Shown: piece after piece, positions 35,310-44,552 of the stretch | Layout: each line of letters begins with the position of its first letter | Numbering within the stretch: position 1 is the stretch's first letter | DNA from: Candidatus Bathyarchaeota archaeon | GTDB lineage: Archaea > Thermoproteota > Bathyarchaeia > Bathyarchaeales > Bathycorpusculaceae | Direction of reading: 5' to 3' | DNA: 64,000 nucleotides | NCBI GenBank assembly: GCA_963777155.1 | Contig: CAVZPM010000001.1 | Span: 32,001 to 96,000, forward strand | Notes under the pieces: model-generated | What the model was told of the DNA's origin: nothing | Databases searched by the model: none | Seen by the model: the letters and a program-made list of their open reading frames with translations, nothing else | Translations under genes and position numbers: made by a program

Positions 35310-36026
35310 ATGACACCCAATAAAAACAGTAGGGCACCATACAAGCGAAAATCCAACAAGACACTGTTTCTTGCAATAGGCATAATTGCTATAATTCTAA
35401 TCGGCGTCGGGGCATACATTATGTTCGGGCAATCAGCAAACCAACCAGCTAACGCGACGCCAACTCCTACGCCTACTCCAGCACCGACTTCGTCAACATC
35501 GCCTTCGGCTACACCTGCCGATCCCCATTATGTCAACCCAACAAAAGTTCGGCTTCAAACCTCCGTCGGAAACATAACCCTTGAGTTGCGAAGCGATAAG
35601 CCCATCACAACTGCTAACTTCATAAACCTCGTACAACAAGGAAAGTACGATGGAACAGTTTTCCACAGAGTAATTGCAGGCTTCATGATACAGGGCGGCT
35701 CAATCAGTGGCTCCACCCCCACTATAGCTGACGAAATTGGGAGCAACAATCGTAATGTTGCGTACACAATAGCTATGGCGAAAACCAGCGACCCCAATTC
35801 AGCAACAAGCCAATTCTTCATAAACGTTGCCGATAACGGAAACAACCCCATAGACCAGGCAGGAACCAAATTCGACGCAGTTTACGCAGTCTTTGGAAAA
35901 GTAGTCGAGGGTCAAAGTGTCGTTGATGCAATAGCTAACGCCCAAGTTACCGCAAATCCATACACACATGAAAACAGTTCACCTGTTAACCCTGTCACAC
36001 TAACAAAAGCTACAATATTACCTTAA
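35310..36026 (+). CDS. Membrane-anchored cyclophilin-type PPIase
   Basis: N-terminal TM helix, PT-rich linker, FHRVIAGFMIQGG, SATSQFFIN, AVFGKV. Confidence 0.92.
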   Translation: MTPNKNSRAPYKRKSNKTLFLAIGIIAIILIGVGAYIMFGQSANQPANATPTPTPTPAPTSSTSPSATPADPHYVNPTKVRLQTSVGNITLELRSDKPITTANFINLVQQGKYDGTVFHRVIAGFMIQGGSISGSTPTIADEIGSNNRNVAYTIAMAKTSDPNSATSQFFINVADNGNNPIDQAGTKFDAVYAVFGKVVEGQSVVDAIANAQVTANPYTHENSSPVNPVTLTKATILP

Positions 36027-36114
36027 ATAGATCCAAAATATCATCCTTCAACTTTTCTTTTTTATTTAATTTAATAAATCTGTGGCATTAAGCACAATCA
36101 AGACAGCCTATCTT

Positions 36115-36141
36115 TTGCAATAGGCATAATAGCTATAATTC
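36115..36141 (+). repeat. Decayed copy of the 35371-35397 signal-anchor coding sequence
   Basis: TTGCAATAGGCATAAT(T/A)GCTATAATTC, 26/27 identical. Confidence 0.85.
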
Positions 36142-36163
36142 AAATTGATCTCTTTGATAAATT

Positions 36164-36649
36164 ATGTCAGGACAAACATCAAATCAACCTGAAACTAAAA
36201 TTCTACTTCACACAAGCATGGGCGATATAACAATCGCTTTGCGCAACGATATGCCGATAACCACAGGAAACTTCAAGAACCTTGTACAAAAGGGGACTTA
36301 CAACGGTACAATTTTTCACCGTGTCATCCCAGGTTTCATGATTCAAGGCGGGGACCCAACAGGCACCGGTTATGGCGACCCATCAATACCTGAAATCCGA
36401 GATGAATTTACAAAAACCAACCGCAACGACAGAGGCACAATATCAATGGCAAACGCGGGTCCAAACACAGGAAGCAGCCAATTCTTCATCAACCAAGTAA
36501 ACAACAACTTTTTAGATGGCAAGCACCCTGCCTTTGGCAAAGTCATCGCTGGAATGGATGTCGTCGATAAGATCGTTAAAGTGCCAACCAACCGGAACGA
36601 TAAACCTTTAACCAATGTCACAATTGTTAGCGCGACAATCTTGCTTTAA
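36164..36649 (+). CDS. Cytoplasmic cyclophilin-type PPIase
   Basis: FHRVIPGFMIQGGDPTGTG, SMANAGPNTGSSQFFI, LDGKHPAFG. Confidence 0.95.
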   Translation: MSGQTSNQPETKILLHTSMGDITIALRNDMPITTGNFKNLVQKGTYNGTIFHRVIPGFMIQGGDPTGTGYGDPSIPEIRDEFTKTNRNDRGTISMANAGPNTGSSQFFINQVNNNFLDGKHPAFGKVIAGMDVVDKIVKVPTNRNDKPLTNVTIVSATILL

Positions 36650-36675
36650 ACAAAAAATAAAAAGTTAAAAATTAA

Positions 36676-36879
36676 CTATTTTTTCTTTTCTTCTTCAGGT
36701 TTAGGCTTAGAACCGATTTCTACAGCTTGGATGCTTATTTGGTATTTCTTGCCGCCTGCAACCATCTTTCCCGTTCCGTAGTAGCCTCTGCTGCCTGTTT
36801 TGAAGTTTTTTTTGTCGAGGATGAAGTTTTGTTTTTCGCCACATAGCTGGATAGTTGACATGTTTACATCGTTACTCAT
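36676..36879 (-). CDS. Small basic hypothetical protein
   Basis: GGTGAG SD; FKTGSRGYYGTGK...KYQISIQAVEIGSKP. Confidence 0.7.
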   Translation of the reverse strand: MSNDVNMSTIQLCGEKQNFILDKKNFKTGSRGYYGTGKMVAGGKKYQISIQAVEIGSKPKPEEEKKK

Positions 36880-37088
36880 TTTAGGTCTCACCTATCTTTA
36901 CTTCTTATCATTGTTCTGTTGCTTTTCACCTTTTCGCTTTGAGTTCTGGACATTTTGTTTTTAGGTTACTTTTTTATTTTCATTAAATCCAAATCTACCA
37001 ATGGCACTGGACTATTTTTTGTAAAGCGTCTTTCAGCAAAGTTTTTAAGTGTTATATTAACTCTTATGAGTTAATATAGTGAATCCGT

Positions 37089-37448
37089 ATGCCAAAACTC
37101 CCAAAAAATGAAAAAATCATCGGTTACGCCCTACTGATCTTAGGTGTCATTTTGTTGCTTTTTTCAATCGTTGAAATGGTGACAGTCTATTACGGTTATG
37201 CTCCTCCACCAAAACTCTTCAACCTCCAAGACATTTCCCTGCCCGGAGATAACGGATCGAACATATCGTTAATTCAAGGCGCCCAAGCAAGCCAATTGCC
37301 TAACCTTTTCTTCTGGTTTTTACTTATGGGGTTTGTCCTGCTTGCAGGAGGAAAAATCGCGTCATTGGGTATTAGCATGATTAAAGATATTAAAGTTGAA
37401 ATAAGCGAGCCAATGACAACGCCTGCCAATGTACAAAGCGCCAAATAA
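37089..37448 (+). CDS. Hypothetical two-TM membrane protein
   Basis: Two hydrophobic helices; similar to the next gene. Confidence 0.75.
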   Translation: MPKLPKNEKIIGYALLILGVILLLFSIVEMVTVYYGYAPPPKLFNLQDISLPGDNGSNISLIQGAQASQLPNLFFWFLLMGFVLLAGGKIASLGISMIKDIKVEISEPMTTPANVQSAK

Positions 37449-37464
37449 ACAAACGTGACTGCCC

Positions 37465-37911
37465 ATGGATTCTTCAGCAACCGAATACATCAAAATTCTT
37501 CTAGATGTTTTGGTAGCTGCCATAATAACTGTGGTCTTATTCTTTATTGTTCGACGATCAAGAAAGGAACAAACATTCGTCGGATACACAGCGCGATCAG
37601 TTGAGGAAAAGTACATAGGATATGTTTTGCTTGTAACAGGGATAGTTGTAATAGTTGTTTCAATCTTCGAGCTAATTGTTCTCTTAGAAGGCAATTACTA
37701 CTCGCCTATACCGTTTGGCTTGACTGATCTCCAAATGACCACAGGCAACCAAACTACAGCTGTTGCTTCAGGACAGCTTTTAGGGCTAGGCTTCGGCATA
37801 TCCTTTTGGCTGTTAATCTTCGGTGCTGGCGGAAGAAAGCTGGTATCCATTGGATTGGATATGCTGAGGGGCAGAGCAATAAAGATTCGGAGAACCGTCA
37901 AAACCCGATAA
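37465..37911 (+). CDS. Hypothetical membrane protein, paralogue of 37089-37448
   Basis: IGYVLLVTG vs IGYALLILG; GGRKLVSIGLDML vs GGKIASLGISMI. Confidence 0.75.
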   Translation: MDSSATEYIKILLDVLVAAIITVVLFFIVRRSRKEQTFVGYTARSVEEKYIGYVLLVTGIVVIVVSIFELIVLLEGNYYSPIPFGLTDLQMTTGNQTTAVASGQLLGLGFGISFWLLIFGAGGRKLVSIGLDMLRGRAIKIRRTVKTR

Positions 37912-38308
37912 TTGAAAAGAGAAAATGGTGCGGTCGCCGGGATTTGAACCCGGGATCATTAGCTTGGAAGGCTAAAGTCCTAAACCAGACTAGACGACAA
38001 CCGCTCATGTTTTGCTGTTTAAGGCTGTTTTTGGGCTTATTTAGGTCATGGGCTTCTTTGTTTTGGCTTTGACCTATTTGACCACTTGTTGCCTTTTCAG
38101 TTGTCAGAGAAATGCCTTGTGTTTTTAATAAAGTTTTCAGAGATTCCATGCTTTGAGGATGATATTCAAACTGGGGTTTGCCCTTTAGTTGTCCTGTGTA
38201 GTGTCTTGCTCTGCCATAAGCTAGTTGTCCATTGTTTCTGATGAATAGTTGTATCAGAGAAACTTTGCCACAAACTCCACATTCAGATTTCACACACTTA
38301 AACTTCAT
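37898..38308 (-). CDS. CxxC-containing ORF reading through tRNA-Gly; candidate N-terminal integrase-like fragment or array-associated protein
   Basis: GGGGAG SD, ATG, CGVCGK and ARHY; last ~30 codons are tRNA sequence; no tyrosine-recombinase catalytic domain. Confidence 0.55.
   Translation of the reverse strand: MKFKCVKSECGVCGKVSLIQLFIRNNGQLAYGRARHYTGQLKGKPQFEYHPQSMESLKTLLKTQGISLTTEKATSGQIGQSQNKEAHDLNKPKNSLKQQNMSGCRLVWFRTLAFQANDPGFKSRRPHHFLFSIIGF
37926..38004 (-). tRNA. tRNA-Gly (TCC), CCA encoded
   Basis: GCGGTTG/CGACCGC acceptor stem, TTAGC-CTTCCAA-GCTAA anticodon arm, CCGGG-TTCAAAT-CCCGG T-arm, ACCA end. Confidence 0.97.
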
Positions 38309-38360
38309 ACAGATACTCCCCTTAGACTTGGAGCTGGAGTGCCATAGAGCTATTTTAAGA

Positions 38361-38383
38361 CCATTAAGAACTAGTTTTGGAGC
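38361..38383 (+). repeat. Cassette repeat, 3' half-copy (left edge of array)
   Basis: CCATTAAGAACTAGTTTTGGAGC matches the 3' part of copy 3 (CATTAAGAGCTAGTTTTGAAG). Confidence 0.75.
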
Positions 38384-38877
38384 GTAGGCTGTGTGAGTGA
38401 TTGTTGCTTTTTGTTCCTTAACTCAACTAGCAGTTGAGCAGTCAAAGAAGGAAAAAAATACAGAATAAAGCTACTAGTTATGAAACTTACATAAACTGAT
38501 GCTGGGAATAATGGAGACCCCGTCCAAAACAGGAAAACTGAAACAAAACCACCTATTGTTATTCCTAAAAGTATCGCTAAGGTTGTTGATTTGCTAGCCA
38601 CTAAGTTTGTTGTGTTTGCTAAGAGGTAGAAGACGCCAAAGAAAATTCCCATCACTAAAAGGGTAACAGTTATTGTTGAAAGATTGGTAAATGTGAGCAA
38701 GAAAAATGAAAGTGCAGAGGTTGTGCTTACTATTAGTTTTAAAACTGTGCATGCAATTGTTAATCCAAAAGCAACAAGGAACGTTATTAGGGCTTTTTTC
38801 ACTTGCTTTGCCTCAAATGGCAATACATTTGTCTGTGGATAAAAGGTTTCACTTACTCTAATTTTGGAGTGTAACAT
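38371..38877 (-). CDS. Cassette ORF 1: multi-TM membrane protein
   Basis: About four hydrophobic segments; stop lies in the left half-repeat; start uncertain (track start 38916 falls within the repeat). Confidence 0.65.
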   Translation of the reverse strand: MLHSKIRVSETFYPQTNVLPFEAKQVKKALITFLVAFGLTIACTVLKLIVSTTSALSFFLLTFTNLSTITVTLLVMGIFFGVFYLLANTTNLVASKSTTLAILLGITIGGFVSVFLFWTGSPLFPASVYVSFITSSFILYFFPSLTAQLLVELRNKKQQSLTQPTLQN

Positions 38878-38884
38878 CAGGTAT

Positions 38885-38944
38885 GCTCTAAATCTGCTAA
38901 TCAGATTAGACAGCATCCAATCTTTAAGACCTATTCTTTAGAGC
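38885..38944 (+). repeat. Cassette repeat, full copy 1
   Basis: GCTCTAAATCTGCTAATCAGATTAGACAGCATCCAATCTTTAAGACCTATTCTTTAGAGC; perfect 8-bp terminal inverted repeat. Confidence 0.85.
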
Positions 38945-38999
38945 TAAAATCATCAATGTAAACAAACCTTAAATCATAAAAGAATGCAAAGGAGCTTCT

Positions 39000-39425
39000 A
39001 TGCGGTTAGATAGAAAATCCCTGTTTGCATTGGCAGTTGTTGTAATGTCTCTTATTTTTATAGTTACTATACTCTATTTTGCAATAGGCACAAAGGGCAA
39101 TCTTGTCAGCACTCATTCTCCTTATACTGGAGAGAGCAGTTATGGTCATGGCTGGAACTCAACTATTAAACTATACCTTGAAAATGTTGGAGGTGGACCA
39201 GCAACAATCTGTGACTTTGTGATTAATGGCAAGTCCTATAGCAGTTATGTTCCTGTTCCTTCAGTTAATCCATCTATAGAGAATGGGTACACCTTGTCTC
39301 TTTTTCAAAGTATTACCTTTACAATTAAACTCATTAACCAACCATCTGCGTTGTACCAAGGTGGAAATGAATTATATGTTTTAACAACAGATGGTCAGAG
39401 TCTAAGAATATACCTTGGCAGTTAA
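39000..39425 (+). CDS. Cassette ORF 2: N-anchored exported beta-rich protein (pilin/archaellin C-domain-like)
   Basis: N-terminal TM; LYLENVGGGPATI..FVING and VLTTDG motifs; GGAG SD. Confidence 0.7.
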   Translation: MRLDRKSLFALAVVVMSLIFIVTILYFAIGTKGNLVSTHSPYTGESSYGHGWNSTIKLYLENVGGGPATICDFVINGKSYSSYVPVPSVNPSIENGYTLSLFQSITFTIKLINQPSALYQGGNELYVLTTDGQSLRIYLGS

Positions 39426-39444
39426 GTACTGATGATTCAAACCT

Positions 39445-39501
39445 ACTTCTAAATCCGCTAGTCAGCAATGACGCTTCCAACCATAAAAAATAGTTTGGAG
39501 T
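39445..39501 (+). repeat. Cassette repeat, full copy 2
   Basis: ACTTCTAAATCCGCTAGTCAGCAATGACGCTTCCAACCATAAAAAATAGTTTGGAGT. Confidence 0.8.
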
Positions 39502-39546
39502 GATTGAGTGTAAAATTATTTATACCTCTTGCAATAAGTGGGGGTC

Positions 39547-39825
39547 ATGATTAAAGAAGCGTGTATAATTGTTTTAGCTTCATGCTGTATCTTTTCAGTT
39601 ATTCCCCTAGTTTCAGTATTCTTTAATGCTTTGAGTTTATTCTTACCTGTCAGTTTCCTTTTACTTGTTCTATCTTACGCTGTCTATGATGCTAAAAAAT
39701 TGATTGATAATAGAGAATACAATTTGTTGAAGGGGTTTATTCTGTTCCTAGTTATTGCTATTGTGCTATCTATGATTGCAGTCTATTTTATTCTGCCTTA
39801 TACTCTTCCTAAATTTGTACTTTAA
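39547..39825 (+). CDS. Cassette ORF 3: small three-TM membrane protein
   Basis: Hydrophobic ORF filling the space between repeats; TTTATA box and GGGG SD upstream. Confidence 0.7.
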   Translation: MIKEACIIVLASCCIFSVIPLVSVFFNALSLFLPVSFLLLVLSYAVYDAKKLIDNREYNLLKGFILFLVIAIVLSMIAVYFILPYTLPKFVL

Positions 39826-39862
39826 GTTATAAAGCATAACTAATTCATTTTTACATTTTACA

Positions 39863-39921
39863 CTCTAAATATGCTAATCAGCTTTGATAGCCTACAATCA
39901 TTAAGAGCTAGTTTTGAAGAG
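39863..39921 (+). repeat. Cassette repeat, full copy 3
   Basis: CTCTAAATATGCTAATCAGCTTTGATAGCCTACAATCATTAAGAGCTAGTTTTGAAGAG; 40/48 ungapped identity to copy 1. Confidence 0.85.
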
Positions 39922-39964
39922 CATATGTAAAAATAGCAAATCTATTATACTTCAAATAGTTGAA

Positions 39965-40276
39965 ATGAGGAATATGCACAAATTAGGTAAGATTGCAGTA
40001 GTGACTAACATTCTTCTTGCTTTATTATTTGTTTATTCCAATTTTTCACTTTGGAGTTTAGTGAATGCTGAGTATCCTTATCTAATTGCTAGTCATTGGA
40101 GTCCATTAGGAATTAGTGCTCCACACTATGTAATAACTGATGGGAGTTTTGCAATGGTCCAAACTGTCTTTTTGTATTTTAATTTCCCATTCTGGCTATT
40201 CTTTATTTCAATTGCTGTGAACTTATACTTTATACTAAAACTGAGTAAAGAAGCTAAAAGAGATAATATACGCTAA
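39965..40276 (+). CDS. Cassette ORF 4: two-TM membrane protein
   Basis: Two hydrophobic helices; its TAA is the CTAAAT of the next repeat; start 39965 or 39974. Confidence 0.7.
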   Translation: MRNMHKLGKIAVVTNILLALLFVYSNFSLWSLVNAEYPYLIASHWSPLGISAPHYVITDGSFAMVQTVFLYFNFPFWLFFISIAVNLYFILKLSKEAKRDNIR

Positions 40277-40304
40277 ATATGCAATTCAACTTAGGCAGAT
40301 TCCA
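40271..40304 (+). repeat. Cassette repeat, 5' half-copy (right edge of array)
   Basis: CGCTAAATATGCAATTCAACTTAGGCAGATTCCA, 25/34 identity to copy 1, after which similarity ends. Confidence 0.7.
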
Positions 40305-40597
40305 CATATCCATCCTATAAACAAAGGAGATTGCCTGAAGGTATGATGCTTTCCAATACCCAAGTTTCTTCAGCCCCCTTTCTTATGAGGACAAAAAACT
40401 TATCCAAAGAAGTTATCCTAAAAACTGAAGACTTGTGGGTTCTAACCATATCCCATTTGAAGTTTTCTACCTTCAGCATACTGGCGAACATGGTTTTGTT
40501 CAAAATAAATTTCAAGACCGTCCTCTTAAGCTAAGGTTCAGGATCAACATTGCTCAGAGGATAGTAGTTAAATGATTTTTTCATTTGAGAATAAATA

Positions 40598-40620
40598 AAG
40601 GCTTTTTTAAAAAAAGCCTT
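40598..40620. terminator. Palindromic T/A-tract, probable terminator of the ferritin-like gene
   Basis: AAGGCTTTTTT-A-AAAAAAGCCTT directly at the stop codon. Confidence 0.5.
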
Positions 40621-41077
40621 AAGGGAAGCCTGTTATCAGGTCATACAAGTAGGCGTCCCATTCGGTTGATTCTTTATTAAGAATCTCTAAAACTTCTTTT
40701 AGAACCCTGTGATGTTTCTTCTCATCTTCCAATATATTAAGAATAAGTTGTTTAATCTTCTTGTCCTTTACAACTTCACTAATGTCTTTTGTTTGCTTTA
40801 GCATTTGGGCTTCTTCTTTAATGTGGACTGCAAGTTCTTTTTGTCCAATATCTTTACTTTCGGTGCCAATTAGTGCACTTGAGTTCAGGTCTATGAGCAT
40901 TTGATAAGTATCTGAGTGTTTCTTGGTGTCAAGAATTAGACTATGTATAAACAGTTTTATGATTGGGTTTTTTGATGATTCATACAATGGGGTTAGTTTT
41001 TTAGCGGTTTGGTCTTCAAACTCTTTTTGTTTCTTGATTTTTAAAAGTGCGTCTTCTTCCAATATTTTCCAGGACAA
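40619..41077 (-). CDS. Ferritin-like (rubrerythrin-type) protein
   Basis: Duplicated helices with DTKKH and DEKKHH motifs. Confidence 0.8.
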   Translation of the reverse strand: MSWKILEEDALLKIKKQKEFEDQTAKKLTPLYESSKNPIIKLFIHSLILDTKKHSDTYQMLIDLNSSALIGTESKDIGQKELAVHIKEEAQMLKQTKDISEVVKDKKIKQLILNILEDEKKHHRVLKEVLEILNKESTEWDAYLYDLITGFP

Positions 41078-41515
41078 AGAGATTCCTCATGAATGTTCAA
41101 GAACAATTTACTATTTAACTTTTTTAATAACCTCAATTCCCAATTTGGGCAAGAAGATTGTTAATTAGTATTTGTTGTCTTTTTATTTGCTCTGCAGATC
41201 TTATGTCTTAGCACCTTCGTATGGTACTTTTTCATAATTGTACTTGGCTAAATATTGTATGGCATTTTTGCTGTGTGAAAATGGGGTAAAGTAATGCTTG
41301 CACCCAGATAGGAGAAAAGTGAAGGTGGAGATAGATGCAAGCATCACACCATTTTTTCCCTAAACAATAACCAAACGCTTTCTCCACTTAACATTTTTTG
41401 AGAAGACAACTTCACTGTTTTGCAAAGAAGAAAGGGAAAAAGTTAGAGGAAAATTTTCTTTAGTTGCCTTATATAGAAATCAGATCTTACGCCTCAATCT
41501 CGTCTTGGAAACTCG

Positions 41516-41905
41516 TTAGTGGTTTGAGTTAAACAAGGGACTGGAGATTATCATGTCTGCTGTGGCTCTATTGCAGGCAGTCGGAATATTATACAAGACT
41601 GCCAATCTAAGAACTGCTTTAACATCAACGTCGTGAGGCTGAGACTCCAATGGGTCCCAAAAGAATATCAATATATCTAGTTTCTCATTGGCAATCATAG
41701 CTCCCAGCTCCATGTCTCCACCAAAAGGTCCGCTCTTTAACAGGTTTATCTTCAAATTTGTATTCTCAATTATCTTCTTGCCTGTTGTTCCTGTTGCGTA
41801 AAGGCAATAGTGGGATAGAGTTCCTTTGTTGAAATCACACCACTCAACCAAATCCTTTTTCTTGTTATCATGAGCTACAAGCGCAATGGTTTTCATAATT
41901 TTCAA
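41516..41905 (-). CDS. mgsA: Methylglyoxal synthase
   Basis: IALVAHDNKK, ATGTTG, SGPFGGD, FFWDP, PHDVDVKAVLRLA, ACNRATAD. Confidence 0.95.
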   Translation of the reverse strand: MKIMKTIALVAHDNKKKDLVEWCDFNKGTLSHYCLYATGTTGKKIIENTNLKINLLKSGPFGGDMELGAMIANEKLDILIFFWDPLESQPHDVDVKAVLRLAVLYNIPTACNRATADMIISSPLFNSNH

Positions 41906-42241
41906 TTCCAGTGTGTTTTAAACCAACACAAATCTTAATGACGCGTCGAATAAAAACATGTATTGAATTTGTTTTCAAGGTTATTCCAAGAACTGAAAAT
42001 ATGCCTTAAAATTCTCTGAACACTTGAGTTCACTAAATTATTTGGAGCTAGAAAAGCATTGAATACAGTTAAGACATGGTTGAGAATGATTAGAATTAGT
42101 GCTGTTTTCTTAGTTACTTCTTACCTTTGCTACCTTTTCTTTGTTCACTGAATCAAGCGATTTCCCGGAATTACCTATCTCATGATGCAAAAACTTAAAA
42201 CTCATAATATATAGCATATTGAGTAAGGGAATCAAAAAGAA

Positions 42242-42418
42242 ATGATGAAGCAAATAGTCACCATAAGTTATTTTGTTTTGGCCGTTCTATTAGCCGCAAT
42301 TGCATTTAGAGGCTTTATGAGTGACCTTCTTGTTGCATTGACAATAGGGGTTATCGTTTTCATAGTTGTTATAATTGTTGGTTATTACTTTACTAAAAAA
42401 TTATTAGATTCAGATTAG
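42242..42418 (+). CDS. Small two-TM protein (58 aa, not in track)
   Basis: MMKQIVTISYFVLAVLLAAIAFRGFMSDLLVALTIGVIVFIVVIIVGYYFTKKLLDSD. Confidence 0.6.
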   Translation: MMKQIVTISYFVLAVLLAAIAFRGFMSDLLVALTIGVIVFIVVIIVGYYFTKKLLDSD

Positions 42419-42535
42419 TTCCTATAACCTTTAATTTGCACTAACTTGAAAAATTATCCGTGAGTTTCTTGTTTATAAGATGGAAGAGTATATCTTGCTG
42501 AAGGTTTACGCTTATTGAATAGTTAGGTTAGAAAG

Positions 42536-42817
42536 ATGAGTTCAGGAAAAGAGAGAAAAAAAATTCCCGGTAGCAGAATGAAAATCCTAACTAAAGACGC
42601 CAAACAGATGGTAAACGGGCCATATTATTGTCCAAAATGCAGAAAGGAACTGCTTCAGATTTGTGCTGACCTAAAAAAGAAAGAGGTTTATGCAATCTGC
42701 AAATGTGGACTTGAGTGGCCTCTGACTTATGCGCCTGTTTTTCAACCTATCGATTACTACAACAAATTCCGTGATGCATGGAAAAAACAGAGTTACGGTA
42801 TAATCAAGCAAAAATAA
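42536..42817 (+). CDS. Elf1-like zinc-ribbon protein
   Basis: Basic N-terminus, YCPKC...CKCGL, then PIDYYNKFRD resembling the Elf1 C-terminal helix. Confidence 0.65.
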   Translation: MSSGKERKKIPGSRMKILTKDAKQMVNGPYYCPKCRKELLQICADLKKKEVYAICKCGLEWPLTYAPVFQPIDYYNKFRDAWKKQSYGIIKQK

Positions 42818-43412
42818 ACCCGTCACTTCAACTTTCCCATTCTGATTGGACAAAACAAATTATCTATACGCATGAACTTATCCGTTTTACCAAATGGAGA
42901 AAACGCTTTGATGAGGAGAAACTTGACTTTAGTCGTAGACTACTGATTTGGGGAACCCTTGCGCTTCTCGGATGGGTTTTTTAGCATTCTTTACTTGTGT
43001 TGTTCTACACTTTCCTTTATAGTTGGTTTTATCTGGTTTTCTTAGCCTTCGAAATCTGCGTTATCCTGCGGGGGGCTTGGCTGCAACAGTTGTTATCAAT
43101 GCAAAGGTGCACGAGTGGTTTTGGCAGGTTGGCAGGGGTATTTTTCGGGAGAGAATATGTGAAAAAGGAAAGTGTGAGTAACAGGATTGGATTGGTCCTT
43201 TGTCTATGTGTTGCTATTTGTGCTTCCAACTGTGTTGATGCCTGTTTCACTTGTAACCTCGGTTTCTTACATCAAAGTGTTGGGTTTTACTTGTCTTTTC
43301 GCTATAACGGTTTATAGCTTAGCCAATTGGTCTAAGTGTTCAACAGTAACCAAGAAATCCTGATTTGGGACAAGTTTTAAACCATAGACTGCAAATTATT
43401 TCCAACATCAAA

Positions 43413-44552
43413 ATGGTTAAGTTGGGTAGACTTTTGCTGAAACAAAAACCATATGGACTAACAGTTATCGTAATTTTAATGCTATTAGTGTCTGCCTCTG
43501 TAACTTTTCCTCTTAAAACGTCTGCGCAGACCAATAGTTATTATGATAAATCGTTCGCCTGGGATTATAAGGGTCAACATTGGACATGGAACCTTAGCAT
43601 TCCAATAGACCTATACAACGCCTACAAATCGGTTCCCATTTCCACTCGAACAAGAGATGGACCAGCAGGTTACGGTTTCTGCACAACAACCAAAGATTCC
43701 TATGTGTTAAGTTTAGCTAAAGAGTTGAATGACACTGCAAACGAACTTGGATACAATTCTTTCGATACAATTAGTTTTGCATTGTCTTTTGTCCAAAGTT
43801 TACCCTATACATCTGATTCAGTGACGACAGGGCATGATGAATACCCACGGTTCCCCATTGAGACTTTGGTGGACGACGGCGGGGACTGCGAGGACACATC
43901 CATACTATTTGCGACTTTAACTCTTATTATGGGCTATGGCACAGTGTACATTAATCCTCCAGACCATTATGCCGTAGGCATCTTGGGAAACAACCTTCAT
44001 GGCACCTACTGGACCTACCCCGAAGGCTCCAACAAAACATACTATTACTGCGAAACCACTGGGGATGGTTTTATGATTGGGCAGTTGCCAGATGAATTCC
44101 AGGGAAAAAGCGCCTACATCTACCCAATTGATGAAACCAGACAGTATATAACCACTGTAACGGTCCTTCCTCCAATTACGCCAAGCCCAACAGATTCGCC
44201 TGTTACTACTCTGCCGAACCAGACAACTCAACCAACCCCCAACGATTCGACGTCTCCTTCAATCCCGGGACCAAGTGTTGAGCCAGTTCTGCCGTTATCT
44301 TTCAACTTAATCTCAGACAACCCGCTGTTATTTATTCTAATAATGTTTGCAATCGTTATTTCGATTGGAATCGCGGTCTGGTCGGTGAGAAAACCAAAGC
44401 TGTTGCCGGTGGAAGCTCCTTTGGTTATTGAACCGAGCAATCCGCCAGTAGCATCCGCTGAATTGGGGAATAACAAGTTCTGTATCTATTGCGGTTCAAA
44501 CAACAAAACATATGCTGCATTCTGCGAGAAATGCGGAAAACAAATAGGCTAA
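43413..44552 (+). CDS. Exported transglutaminase-like (papain-fold) protein with TM anchor and C-terminal zinc ribbon
   Basis: Signal peptide, FVQSLPY, GDCEDTSIL, HYAVG, YYCETT, PT linker, TM, CIYCG...CEKCG. Confidence 0.8.
   Translation: MVKLGRLLLKQKPYGLTVIVILMLLVSASVTFPLKTSAQTNSYYDKSFAWDYKGQHWTWNLSIPIDLYNAYKSVPISTRTRDGPAGYGFCTTTKDSYVLSLAKELNDTANELGYNSFDTISFALSFVQSLPYTSDSVTTGHDEYPRFPIETLVDDGGDCEDTSILFATLTLIMGYGTVYINPPDHYAVGILGNNLHGTYWTYPEGSNKTYYYCETTGDGFMIGQLPDEFQGKSAYIYPIDETRQYITTVTVLPPITPSPTDSPVTTLPNQTTQPTPNDSTSPSIPGPSVEPVLPLSFNLISDNPLLFILIMFAIVISIGIAVWSVRKPKLLPVEAPLVIEPSNPPVASAELGNNKFCIYCGSNNKTYAAFCEKCGKQIG

Follow-up and report, generated by a model that had tools for sequence, protein, structure and literature searches.

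What kind of genetic system places a short repeat between unrelated genes beside an archaeal tRNA gene? The question is raised by a 64,000-nt stretch of DNA from an uncultured archaeon (here termed the window), in which an array adjoining a tRNA-Gly gene consists of four unrelated small membrane-protein genes with a conserved repeat of ~65 nt between them. A preliminary description had likened this array to the cassette arrays of integrons and its repeats to attC sites. We read the array, tentatively and at somewhat short of even confidence, as the hypervariable cargo of a decayed integrative element, with the repeats as recombination joints.

The array (Table 1) starts at the remnant front half of a virus-type integrase gene, Int(N), and carries five repeat sites, three full and two half copies, all in direct orientation on the + strand, with a single unrelated small ORF (A to D) per interval. 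It divides into four units that each run from a left-hand 3′ box to a right-hand 5′ box; the 3′ half stands first at the array edge and the 5′ half, which stops at model position 43, stands last. The direct copies and lone unrelated ORFs of the preliminary description were confirmed, as all five sites were significant and ORFs A-D unrelated, and so was its picture of a polar array at tRNA-Gly in which a direct repeat delimits single-gene units, with an enrichment in small membrane proteins. Overlooked had been the integrase-fragment ORF and the 17-nt remnant of a 3′ box before the first full repeat. The low-GC stretch to the right of the array encodes a rubrerythrin-like ORF (40619-41077, - strand) and an MGS-like ORF (41516-41905, - strand), both by Pfam, and is not common to the tRNA-Gly loci of the related genomes G060 or G096, except for one 149-nt match.

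Table 1. Features of the tRNA-Gly locus and its array, in window coordinates.
Feature	Position	Strand	Basis or remark
tRNA-Gly(TCC)	37926-38004	-	ARAGORN; Rfam tRNA, 64 bits
Int(N), N-terminal fragment of split SSV-type ('suicidal') integrase	38040-38308	-	homology to P0001
int upstream region with TATA-like box on - strand (inferred)	38309-38359	-	by eye
First site, 3′ box only (R box)	38360-38387	+	nhmmer model positions 44-71, E 2e-4; CM E 5.5e-5
Cassette ORF A, membrane protein	38371-38916	-	4 hydrophobic segments
3′ box remnant immediately before full repeat 1	38857-38873	+	17 nt, 82-88% to 38370-38386
Full repeat 1	38880-38945	+	nhmmer E 1.5e-13; CM E 1.1e-14
Cassette ORF B	39000-39425	+	N-terminal hydrophobic segment, then probably extracellular domain
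Full repeat 2, most diverged copy	39446-39509	+	nhmmer E 3.6e-9
Cassette ORF C, small membrane protein	39538-39825	+	homologous cassettes in G012, G096
Full repeat 3	39858-39927	+	nhmmer E 4e-16; CM E 1.6e-17
Cassette ORF D, small membrane protein	39914-40276	+	homolog in G113
Last site, 5′ box only	40264-40304	+	nhmmer model positions 3-43, E 1e-3; CM E 2.5e-5
Rest of low-GC stretch	40305-42174	.	GC 0.34-0.36 vs ~0.44 elsewhere

By repeat search, 38886-38938 was found to pair with 39863-39915 (81% over 53 nt), 38362-38382 with 39899-39919 (90% over 21 nt) and 40267-40292 with 39859-39884 (81%), and a 5′ 24-mer was detected in three copies at 38887, 39448 and 39864 (75-79%). Across the 2.29 Mb assembly, an HMM built from three copies recovered the three full copies and nothing else (E 2e-14 to 7e-13); with a second HMM of 19 copies, 16 of them from other genomes, all five sites of the window became significant. 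A covariance model (CM) scan of the assembly returned seven matches, at two loci. In the model scan proposed in the preliminary description, the repeat was present in 57 of 120 genomes of this Bathyarchaeia genus and at two loci of the genome itself; what the copies had in common proved to be sequence and not a fold. Beyond the genus, the repeat was detected in four of 110 genomes of the order, every match being weak.

Column identity averaged 69% over 21 copies of the repeat, with a nearly invariant 20-nt core. The R box, which comprises the 3′ 20-30 nt of the repeat (TAAGAACTAGTTTTGGAGCG), was retained at ~90% identity across elements whose Int(N) sequences are only 33-48% identical. Such conservation is unusual for a mere patch of homology and suggests that a protein or RNA reads the box. 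An R box 19-mer was found in 39 stretches among 185,579 species genomes; 28 of these were in Bathyarchaeota or unnamed archaeal records, and the remaining 11 are consistent with the ~13 chance matches calculated. An exact 18-mer of the R box was absent from IMG/VR viral contigs. An origin of the full repeats as local duplicates was rejected, as copies within an array were no more alike (63%, 12 pairs) than copies between genomes (64%, 198 pairs) and ORFs A-D are unrelated. Derivation from a tRNA or pseudo-att site was likewise rejected, as no local alignment of the repeat consensus to any of the 37 tRNAs in the assembly scored above 18, compared to a shuffled mean of 17.9, with 112 of 200 shuffles reaching 18 or more. 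By eye, the centre of the repeat resembled the anticodon loop or D arm of tRNA-Gly. One locus of a relative (L070) carries a pair of oppositely oriented full repeats separated by 12 kb, with genes for Ig-like surface proteins and no recombinase between them.

The open frame of Int(N) continues across the tRNA gene to 37898, and the fragment is 78% identical to residues 1 to ~115 of P0001 (395 aa), which matches PF16795 at 29.1 bits (cut-off 27) and a PHROG integrase at E 5e-10. The P0001 ORF includes a peptide translated from the 5′ half of tRNA-Gly and then departs from the frame of the window; the att site lies within the int ORF and equals part of the tRNA gene. The att core of this integrase family is the 5′ 42 nt of tRNA-Gly, a 42-nt copy of which bounds the intact elements L057, L059 and L060, and an att copy of 31-42 nt was present in all five of the relatives' elements that retain Int(C). 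By contrast, P0001 is matched in this genome over residues 1-129 only, and the window holds the N-terminal integrase fragment alone, without the catalytic domain. Neither Int(C) nor a second copy of the tRNA part (att) was detected in the window or the rest of the assembly, and thus the window holds a relic. Searches with PF00589 and PF16795 gave zero matches over the whole assembly (90.6% complete), in which no tyrosine recombinase was detected. PF12942 (archaeal AmoA) matched neither this genome nor the control genomes and so carries no information on the placement of the organism. The preliminary description was right that the window contains no IntI but missed that a tyrosine-recombinase remnant, Int(N), lies beside the tRNA, where it points away from the array at the place where intI would sit.

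Homologs of Int(N) were found beside tRNA-Gly and tRNA-Arg at eight loci. With a dN/dS of 0.17-0.39 compared to 0.14-0.26 for host neighbours, Int(N) is under purifying selection like those neighbours. The context of TATA-like box and 3′ box recurs at R-only sites adjoining Int(N) in other genomes, and in the intact elements, which are 2.9 kb long, the R box is immediately adjacent to the int promoter, just ahead of its TATA-like box. A search of the intact elements at E up to 20 found only noise, and no 5′ box, beside the int stop codon; creation of the full repeats by deletion of int was rejected on this ground. When metagenomes were scanned with P0001, one distant locus was returned (37% identity), without the repeat and without a tRNA.

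The order of tRNA, Int(N) relic, 3′ half-repeat and cassettes recurs in relatives at tRNA-Gly, tRNA-Arg(TCT), tRNA-Arg(CCT) and tRNA-Pro loci, as well as at the second locus of this genome. When 20 Int(N)-bearing loci were read by hand, an R-only site stood first and was directed away from int in 15, a full repeat was first in two, a 5′ box was first in one, and no site was present in two. Ten repeat-bearing loci had no Int(N) in the stretch examined. The integrase was split at every array, and the full repeat was absent from all five att-bounded elements, none of which has an array. By hand reading, the arrays end with a 3′ box, a full repeat or a 5′ box in about a third of cases each.

Comparison of cassette content across relatives, which the preliminary description had suggested, revealed that content differs while the flank is conserved. 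Homology with G060 (88%) stopped at 38385 and that with G096 (81%) at 38387, in both cases at the end of the first half-repeat; it resumed from 41289 or 42175, with G060 at 41289-41437 and from 42175. Homologs of cassette C were found at the tRNA-Gly loci of G012 (79% DNA identity) and G096 (83%). A homolog of cassette D was found in the tRNA-Arg(TCT) array of G113 (L040, 5914-6213), in an alignment that spans the repeat and a common TATA-like box and extends to the stop codon. Five further cassette families were common to other loci, and families reappear in arrays at different tRNAs. Unusual 3′ box variants were found to travel with the downstream cassette, AGAGCATA preceding cassette D in two genomes and GCGGT preceding cassette C in two genomes. 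Relics of the int-upstream region were present inside the arrays of G012 and of contig C2 of G113.

ORFs A-D gave no blastp match to one another under E 1 and no DNA match under E 0.07, and Pfam and PHROGs assigned no family to any of the four. A crude hydropathy scan revealed 4, 1, 3 and 2 hydrophobic segments in A, B, C and D, respectively. The nearest Atlas clusters to ORF B were Bathyarchaeota hypothetical proteins (0.92); a relationship to archaeal pilin N-terminal domains, which scored only 0.86, is a lead at most. The true start of ORF A is probably downstream of 38877, and ORF D likely starts at the ATG at 39965 or 39974. The stop codon of ORF A lies inside the CTAG of the R box and, in agreement with the preliminary description, the TAA of ORF D (40274-40276) lies inside the first box of the last half copy. 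TATA-like boxes were identified by eye after the repeats, two of them conserved in homologous cassettes of other genomes. Exactly one ORF of at least 45 aa was contained in 24 of 36 intervals; 12 of these single ORFs were on the + strand and 12 on the - strand, while the repeats kept one polarity. Thus, polarity is a property of the array and not of the gene, and the ORFs, being in both orientations and seemingly with promoters of their own, are not expressed in the manner of a Pc promoter.

Population variants were sought in Logan contigs (runs X1, X2 and X5). The X1 contigs covered 38321-40193 in five pieces with 0-3 differences, and X1 may be the sample of origin. One X2 contig (depth 6) connects 38867 with 39507, its shorter side being 48 letters long; from this single contig, the joint hints at a variant that lacks cassette B and whose junction lies at the end of a 3′ box. 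Joints of 38383 to 38881 and of 39899 to 40274 had only 21 letters on one side and were not used. Contig depths in X2 and X5 were ~35-100 in the flanks and ~1-7 over 38206-40617, a measure that cannot rank the parts of a stretch.

Observation establishes how the array is built, that an integrase relic is present, that the repeat is conserved and polar, that content varies and cassettes are shared among arrays, and that a conserved fold is lacking. In the reading of the array as cargo, a mobile element would have integrated into tRNA-Gly by means of an SSV-type 'suicidal' integrase, thereby splitting the int gene, of which only Int(N) would remain. The ~65-nt repeat would be a sequence-specific DNA element of this element family in one Bathyarchaeia genus, the R box or full repeat recurring with one polarity between small self-promoted genes, mostly for membrane proteins. 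Incoming related elements would exchange DNA with the resident relic at these boundaries, for the most part through homologous or short-homology recombination followed by decay, and single-gene modules would thereby be gained, lost and replaced. That the repeat is the place of exchange we infer, as we do the kind of recombination. With the repeats as exchange joints, the locus would behave like a cassette array without being an integron; the ragged junctions, with R-only copies that do not adjoin int starting at positions 41-51 and 5′-only copies ending at positions 31, 33, 43, 48 and 51, and the int-upstream relics in arrays favor homology-driven exchange and decay over one precise crossover. 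Against this reading, recombination was not observed directly, the one contig joint being weak, and the full repeats and 5′ box have no source in the five att-bounded elements. Furthermore, a 3′ half at the start and a 5′ half at the end form the pattern of site-specific insertion at a central core, and the ~90% identity of the R box, the failure to detect a tyrosine recombinase in the assembly and the ten loci without Int(N) also weigh against it.

This pattern of ends is what true integron-like cassette capture would leave, an explanation we consider unlikely, in which the int-upstream region and R box beside the integrase gene serve as the docking site. Circular single-gene cassettes with a full repeat would undergo site-specific recombination at a mid-repeat core (around CAATCAT), catalyzed in trans by a full-length SSV-type integrase or another enzyme, perhaps aided by Int(N). 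It is equally doubtful that Int(N), with its zinc-ribbon-like domain and purifying selection, forms with the R box a docking platform for a sequence-specific, hairpin-free exchange of cassettes that diversifies surface and membrane proteins. The layout does parallel that of intI, attI and cassettes, with a half-site at the promoter of an outward recombinase gene in 15 of the 20 loci, and the four units lie between a first site of model positions 44-71 and a last site of positions 3-43. Many 3′ partial copies begin at position 44, 3′ box variants move with the downstream cassette, copies are as similar to those of other genomes as to their own neighbours, as in attC sites, and the omega of Int(N) is comparable to that of host genes. 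However, the starts at position 44 stem largely from homologous copies of the int promoter and R box, and the 5′-only copies number only five, with ends scattered over positions 31-51. The mixed array ends also misfit a clean attL...attR pattern, and the break in homology with both G060 and G096 falls where the R box ends and not at its centre. The integrase is split at every array, none of the five intact elements has an array, and no recombinase was detected in this genome. Moreover, the known att of the integrase family is a tRNA fragment, whereas the repeat is unlike any tRNA.

An improbable alternative gives the repeat, and its R box in particular, a regulatory or insulating role, e.g., as an operator for an element or host regulator of int and accessory genes, and has the array arise by serial tRNA integrations and later deletions. 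The position of the R box, just ahead of the TATA-like box of int in intact elements and 34-81 nt upstream of the start codons of + strand ORFs, agrees with an operator, as does its near-invariance over 20 nt, which is typical of protein-binding sites. The repeat was also found beside other mobile elements, namely terminase-bearing regions and a PF00589 integrase with a PolB-like gene, and the int-upstream relics inside two arrays point to earlier integrations. By contrast, a gene-linked operator would turn with its gene, and reversal of half of the single ORFs (12 of 24) places the R box at their 3′ end; the spacing to start codons also varies. Serial integration leaves att copies and int fragments according to the tycheposon study (Hackl et al., bioRxiv 10.1101/2020.12.28.424599), whereas the interiors of the arrays examined were free of att copies and of Int(N) and Int(C) fragments.

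A role of the repeat in encoding or marking a structured small RNA (sRNA, processing signal or terminator) is very improbable. An 8-bp terminal stem with one G-T pair is possible in several copies on the + strand, and by eye the repeat shows a T4 run and stop codons in every frame. However, a search of 36000-44000 with Rfam 15 at E up to 1 gave nothing on the repeats, only the tRNA model passing; a mascRNA-menRNA match over the same tRNA gene reached 23.4 bits compared to a gathering score of 42.5. RNAalifold found no consensus structure on either strand (consensus energy 0), covariation was absent from the repeat, with substitutions that break pairs and none that compensate, and single copies folded weakly and inconsistently (-4 to -8 kcal/mol). 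Half copies, moreover, are common. A C/D-box sRNA was rejected by eye only, with one C-like and one D-like box on the - strand and no C′ or D box. The attC likeness drawn in the preliminary description failed with the fold. The core pair RYYYAAC/GTTRRRY was absent from 38000-40600 on both strands, the lone core-type motif in the five sites being one RYYYAAC at 40284, and the named stems were 72.9% paired compared to 73.6% in shuffled columns, with 383 of 500 shuffles as high. The complementary ends it had ascribed to the full copies are present in copy 1 (GCTCTAAA...TTTAGAGC), and their pairing is lost in the others. Thus, the repeat is conserved in sequence and not in fold, the reverse of attC.

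Least credible, and refuted within the limits of this assembly, are two readings that the preliminary description had itself raised, a dispersed element of MITE/REP type or intervals that derive from a single gene by tandem duplication and divergence: the short complementary ends (GCTCTAAA and TTTGGAGC) and direct repeats at regular spacing would suit them, whereas the repeat is confined to two loci of the 2.29 Mb assembly, each with a tRNA and an Int(N) relic, ORFs A-D and the interval DNA are unrelated, and copies within an array are no closer than copies elsewhere.

Bathyarchaeia are abundant and uncultured, and their gene gain and loss are little known. The locus type described here recurs at at least four tRNA genes, is carried by about half the genomes of a single genus, and concentrates strain-specific small membrane proteins. 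The 20-nt box beside an Int(N) relic provides a simple sequence handle for locating such islands and measuring their turnover. A repeat that proves to be a recombination site would mean a cassette system that originated independently of integrons, in another branch of tyrosine-recombinase elements, and the 'dead' half of a suicidal integrase would then have a function. Were the repeat only a regulatory box, the locus would still provide a clean example of gene capture at tRNA genes in archaea other than the hyperthermophiles in which the process has been described.

Among known systems, in the promoter-stem-loop (PeSL) cassettes of T4-type phages, the 'boundary sequences' of lambdoid phages and phage morons, small self-expressed accessory genes in hyperplastic regions are flanked by short conserved intergenic sequences, which may provide joints for modular shuffling by recombination. 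The flanking sequences in those systems are promoters or terminators that follow the orientation of their genes; in the array, by contrast, polarity belongs to the array and there is no conserved stem. Integrated elements are reportedly captured at archaeal tRNA genes, as She et al. are said to have described in 2001 under the title 'Gene capture in archaeal chromosomes'. The locus agrees with the SSV-type suicidal integrases of archaeal tRNA genes, as presented by Badel et al. 2020 (PMC7253208), in that the att site inside the int ORF is part of the tRNA and int is split into Int(N) and Int(C); an element unable to excise is trapped beside the tRNA, and the window, with Int(N) alone, fits this outcome. 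As far as searched, the suicidal-integrase literature contains no conserved polar repeat bounding single-gene units, no arrays extending from an int promoter and no Int(N) relic under purifying selection.

In integrons, IntI consists of PF00589 with an IntI-specific domain, attC is a hairpin with extrahelical bases that is conserved in structure and variable in sequence, and cassettes are mostly promoterless, co-oriented and expressed from Pc. The array has single-gene units with direct repeats and variable content, and it has no IntI, attC cores, conserved hairpin or promoterless co-oriented cassettes. Compared to the integrons and CALINs covered in the study of archaeal integrons by Ghaly et al. 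2022 (PMC9668308), it is alike in its polar arrangement of mostly single-gene units with a direct repeat between them, in an outward tyrosine-recombinase gene (here a remnant) adjoined by a simpler site, in content that varies among relatives, and in stop codons sometimes located in the first box of the repeat. It differs in having neither IntI nor RYYYAAC/GTTRRRY cores, in conserving sequence rather than fold, in ORFs that face both ways with TATA-like boxes of their own, and in a relic that is of SSV type and tRNA-anchored. According to Hackl et al. (10.1101/2020.12.28.424599), the tycheposon units of Prochlorococcus have partial tRNA flanks and scattered integrase fragments, whereas the array has neither and its boundary repeat is unrelated to any tRNA. 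The two are nonetheless alike in forming hypervariable islands at a few tRNA genes, with small cargo elements, tyrosine recombinases and degraded remnants.

A repeat search of the window revealed 81% identity over 53 nt between positions 38886-38938 and 39863-39915 and also linked the remaining copies of a direct repeat of about 65 nt. An HMM built from the three full copies (those with both the 5′ box and the 3′ or R box, the latter being the 3′ 20-30 nt) had these three as its sole significant matches in the 2.29 Mb assembly. When a second HMM was built on 19 repeat copies, 16 of which were from other genomes, all five sites given in the preliminary description were significant, every one on the + strand (see table). 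Every repeat interval in the window was found to contain a single ORF; only ORF A is on the - strand, and the remaining three (B to D) are on the + strand. No two of these ORFs are related at the protein or DNA level, as had been noticed at the outset, and the intervals are thus not diverged tandem duplicates of one gene. None of the four matched a Pfam or PHROGs family; by a crude scan, A, B, C and D have 4, 1, 3 and 2 hydrophobic segments, respectively. GC content is 0.34-0.38 in the stretch to the right of tRNA-Gly(TCC), which reaches about position 43000, compared to about 0.44 elsewhere. Past the last repeat this low-GC stretch includes rubrerythrin-like and MGS-like ORFs that are missing at the same locus in two relatives (G060 and G096), and the conserved right flank has an Elf1-like zinc-ribbon ORF (PF05129, E 8e-9), which fits an archaeon of the TACK group.

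Features of the tRNA-Gly locus in window coordinates; repeat sites are matches to the second HMM.
Feature	Position	Strand	Remark
tRNA-Gly(TCC)	37926-38004	-	
Int(N) ORF	38040-38308	-	between tRNA-Gly and first repeat site
First repeat site	38360-38387	+	3′ part only, model positions 44-71
ORF A	38371-38916	-	
Full repeat	38880-38945	+	
ORF B	39000-39425	+	
Full repeat	39446-39509	+	
ORF C	39538-39825	+	
Full repeat	39858-39927	+	
ORF D	39914-40276	+	
Last repeat site	40264-40304	+	5′ part only, model positions 3-43
Rubrerythrin-like ORF	40619-41077		
MGS-like ORF	41516-41905		
Elf1-like ORF	42536-42817		

The repeat had been likened to the attC sites of integrons, a likeness that did not survive analysis. 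No RYYYAAC/GTTRRRY pair was found in the array, RNAalifold detected no consensus fold on either strand, and the stems that the repeat could form, terminal and inner, were 72.9% paired over 21 copies compared to 73.6% for shuffled columns, with changes at stem positions disrupting pairs rather than compensating. The repeat is thus not attC-like. Of five integron features tested, the locus shows only one, and it should therefore be classed neither as an integron nor as an attC cluster. The 3′ box includes about 20 nt with almost no variation between copies. The repeat matches no known RNA family, and a tRNA-derived origin was rejected. A dispersed MITE or REP, the scattered element named as a counter-reading in the preliminary description, was ruled out within this assembly by the presence of the repeat at only two loci, and local duplication by a similarity of copies no higher within one array (63%) than between genomes (64%).

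An integrase fragment overlooked in the preliminary description lies beside the tRNA gene. This ORF, Int(N), corresponds to the N-terminal part of an SSV-type 'suicidal' integrase and is 78% identical across residues 1 to ~115 to P0001, a full-length metagenomic homolog of 395 aa with the archaeal phage integrase domain PF16795. Its reading frame continues into the tRNA-Gly gene, and the peptide encoded by the 5′ half of this gene is also present in P0001, with the sequences diverging beyond. Such a tRNA-derived peptide is the mark of SSV-type suicidal integrases, which, according to Badel et al. 2020 (PMC7253208), have the att site inside their own gene, so that integration splits the gene. 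The assembly (completeness 90.6%) encodes integrase residues 1-129 only and contains the tRNA part just once; searches with PF16795 and PF00589 gave zero matches. Because Int(N) is present without the C-terminal part, Int(C), and without attR, the window holds a relic. An XerA-type recombinase was likewise not found in this assembly, which has no PF00589 match; this is unusual for an archaeon and may reflect an assembly gap, completeness being 90.6%.

Comparison of the tRNA-Gly locus across relatives, proposed earlier as a check, revealed that cassette content differs beyond the first 3′ box. Homology to G060 (88%) covers a pair of host genes, the tRNA, Int(N) and the region upstream of the integrase gene (int) and ends at 38385; with G096 (81%) it ends at 38387. 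Both points coincide with the end of the first 3′ box, and only from 41289 or 42175 are the sequences homologous again, with ORFs in between that differ by species. Both G012 and G096 have ORF C at their tRNA-Gly loci, preceded in each case by a different repeat version. The ORF D family occurs in the tRNA-Arg(TCT) array of G113, where the alignment runs from the repeat through a common TATA-like box to the stop codon, and five further cassette families are common to arrays at different tRNAs. With flank homology ending at the first 3′ box and families recurring in other arrays, the locus behaves like a cassette array. The observations of the preliminary description stood, and its integron-like interpretation only in part. 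A variant without cassette B, in which 38867 is joined to 39507 at the end of a 3′ box, was found on a low-depth soil-metagenome contig and is weak evidence, being a single contig with 48 letters on the shorter side.

Two further observations concern this locus. In G012 (L002, C3:1547-1830) the ORF C homolog apparently carries a frameshift, having lost 1 nt compared to the window, Int(N) is truncated, and the 3′ box is only ~200 nt from the tRNA. The stretch 36164-38387 (two small membrane ORFs, tRNA, Int(N) and R box) shows less divergence than its immediate left neighbor, a cyclophilin-like gene, with DNA identity to G060 of 88% vs 75% and, by comparison with the orthologous loci L039 and L052, dS of ~0.3-0.6 vs 0.9-1.2, which hints that the island flank was recently exchanged.

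Scanning the genome and its relatives by profile, as had been suggested, extended the layout beyond the window. A sequence-only covariance model of the repeat matched 57 of 120 genus genomes; in other genera of the order, only weak matches were obtained, in 4 of 110 genomes. A search of 185,579 species genomes for a 19-mer of the 3′ box gave 39 stretches, 28 of them from records of Bathyarchaeota or unnamed archaea; the other 11 agree with the ~13 chance matches calculated for that amount of DNA. Integrase pieces were detected in 71 of 101 genus genomes. When 20 loci with Int(N) beside a tRNA (Gly-TCC, Arg-TCT, Arg-CCT or Pro-TGG) were inspected, the first site at 15 was a lone 3′ box directed away from int, 50-950 nt from its start codon; the others had a full repeat first (two), a 5′ box first (one) or no site (two). 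Counted among the 15 is a second locus of the own genome (C11:64172-65319), where tRNA-Arg(TCT) is accompanied by an Int(N) relic (62% identity to Int(N) of G103), a 3′ box, a single ORF and a full repeat in degenerate form. In relatives, five elements keep Int(C), and in each of them a 31-42 nt part of the tRNA is present as a direct copy; three are only ~2.9 kb, and none has a full repeat or more than a single 3′ box.

Ten more repeat-bearing loci have no Int(N) within the stretch fetched, and some adjoin mobile genes of other kinds: terminase genes, Int(C), or a PF00589 integrase accompanied by a PolB-like gene. At L061 (G107:C4), one 5′ box and three full repeats border a region with a PF00589 integrase and a protein-primed PolB-like gene, with host purine and nickel-insertion genes on the opposite side of the array. 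L051 (G080:C18, 744-3947) has three 24-26 nt copies of the tRNA-Arg(CCT) 3′ end on the side of the tRNA opposite the array, a trace of serial integrations by a different element type.

Exactly one ORF was present in 24 of 36 repeat-to-repeat intervals, 12 on each strand. Those on the + strand begin 34-81 nt past the 3′ box, except ORF D, whose longest open frame opens 7 nt before the end of the box (the likely start is ATG 39965 or 39974). Those on the - strand stop within ~25 nt of the 3′ box, with one exception at 94 nt. Polarity is therefore a property of the array and not of the genes. A hydrophobic segment was found in 34 of 55 ORFs within arrays vs 119 of 349 outside.

Taken together, these results may be explained by a family of elements whose backbone would carry the 3′ box at the int promoter and whose accessory genes would be swapped at this conserved boundary sequence. 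Exchange driven by homology, or by short homology, with later decay is favored over a single precise crossover, given the ragged junctions: the ends of the five 5′-only copies fall at model positions 31-51 and the starts of 3′ copies away from int at 41-51, two arrays contain relics of the int-upstream region, and the 3′ box, the full repeat and the 5′ box each account for about a third of array ends. Against this reading, no recombination event was directly seen, the 3′ box is more conserved than expected for a passive homology patch, and the form of the window array (3′ half, three full repeats, 5′ half) is exactly what insertion at a central core would leave. Nor does this reading explain where the full repeats came from, since intact elements have none.

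The form of the window array would suit a real cassette-capture system by site-specific recombination, independent of known ones, which we consider rather unlikely. The Int(N) relic speaks for such a system: among the three orthologous loci (window, L039 and L052) its dN/dS is 0.17-0.39 (dS 0.18-0.36), like the 0.14-0.26 of the two adjoining host genes, and the 'dead' integrase half thus seems maintained, but the same signal could arise if related elements had integrated again and again. That the repeat is a regulatory box is unlikely; this would explain its position at promoters but neither the polarity independent of the gene nor the absence of att and int debris from the arrays.

According to the tycheposon preprint (Hackl et al., bioRxiv 10.1101/2020.12.28.424599), serial integration leaves att and int debris in the islands, whereas the arrays here lack both. 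The full-text literature searched, which includes PMC11697101, PMC9668308, PMC3293823, PMC7253208 and the tycheposon preprint, gave no description of a polar boundary repeat, of arrays starting at the int promoter or of a conserved Int(N). The locus itself is probably the relic of an SSV-type integrative element, with which it shares the att site within the ORF but from which it differs by its missing Int(C) and attR. The known kinds behind it are gene capture by suicidal integrases and cassette-like hypervariable islands, of which this locus is a variant.
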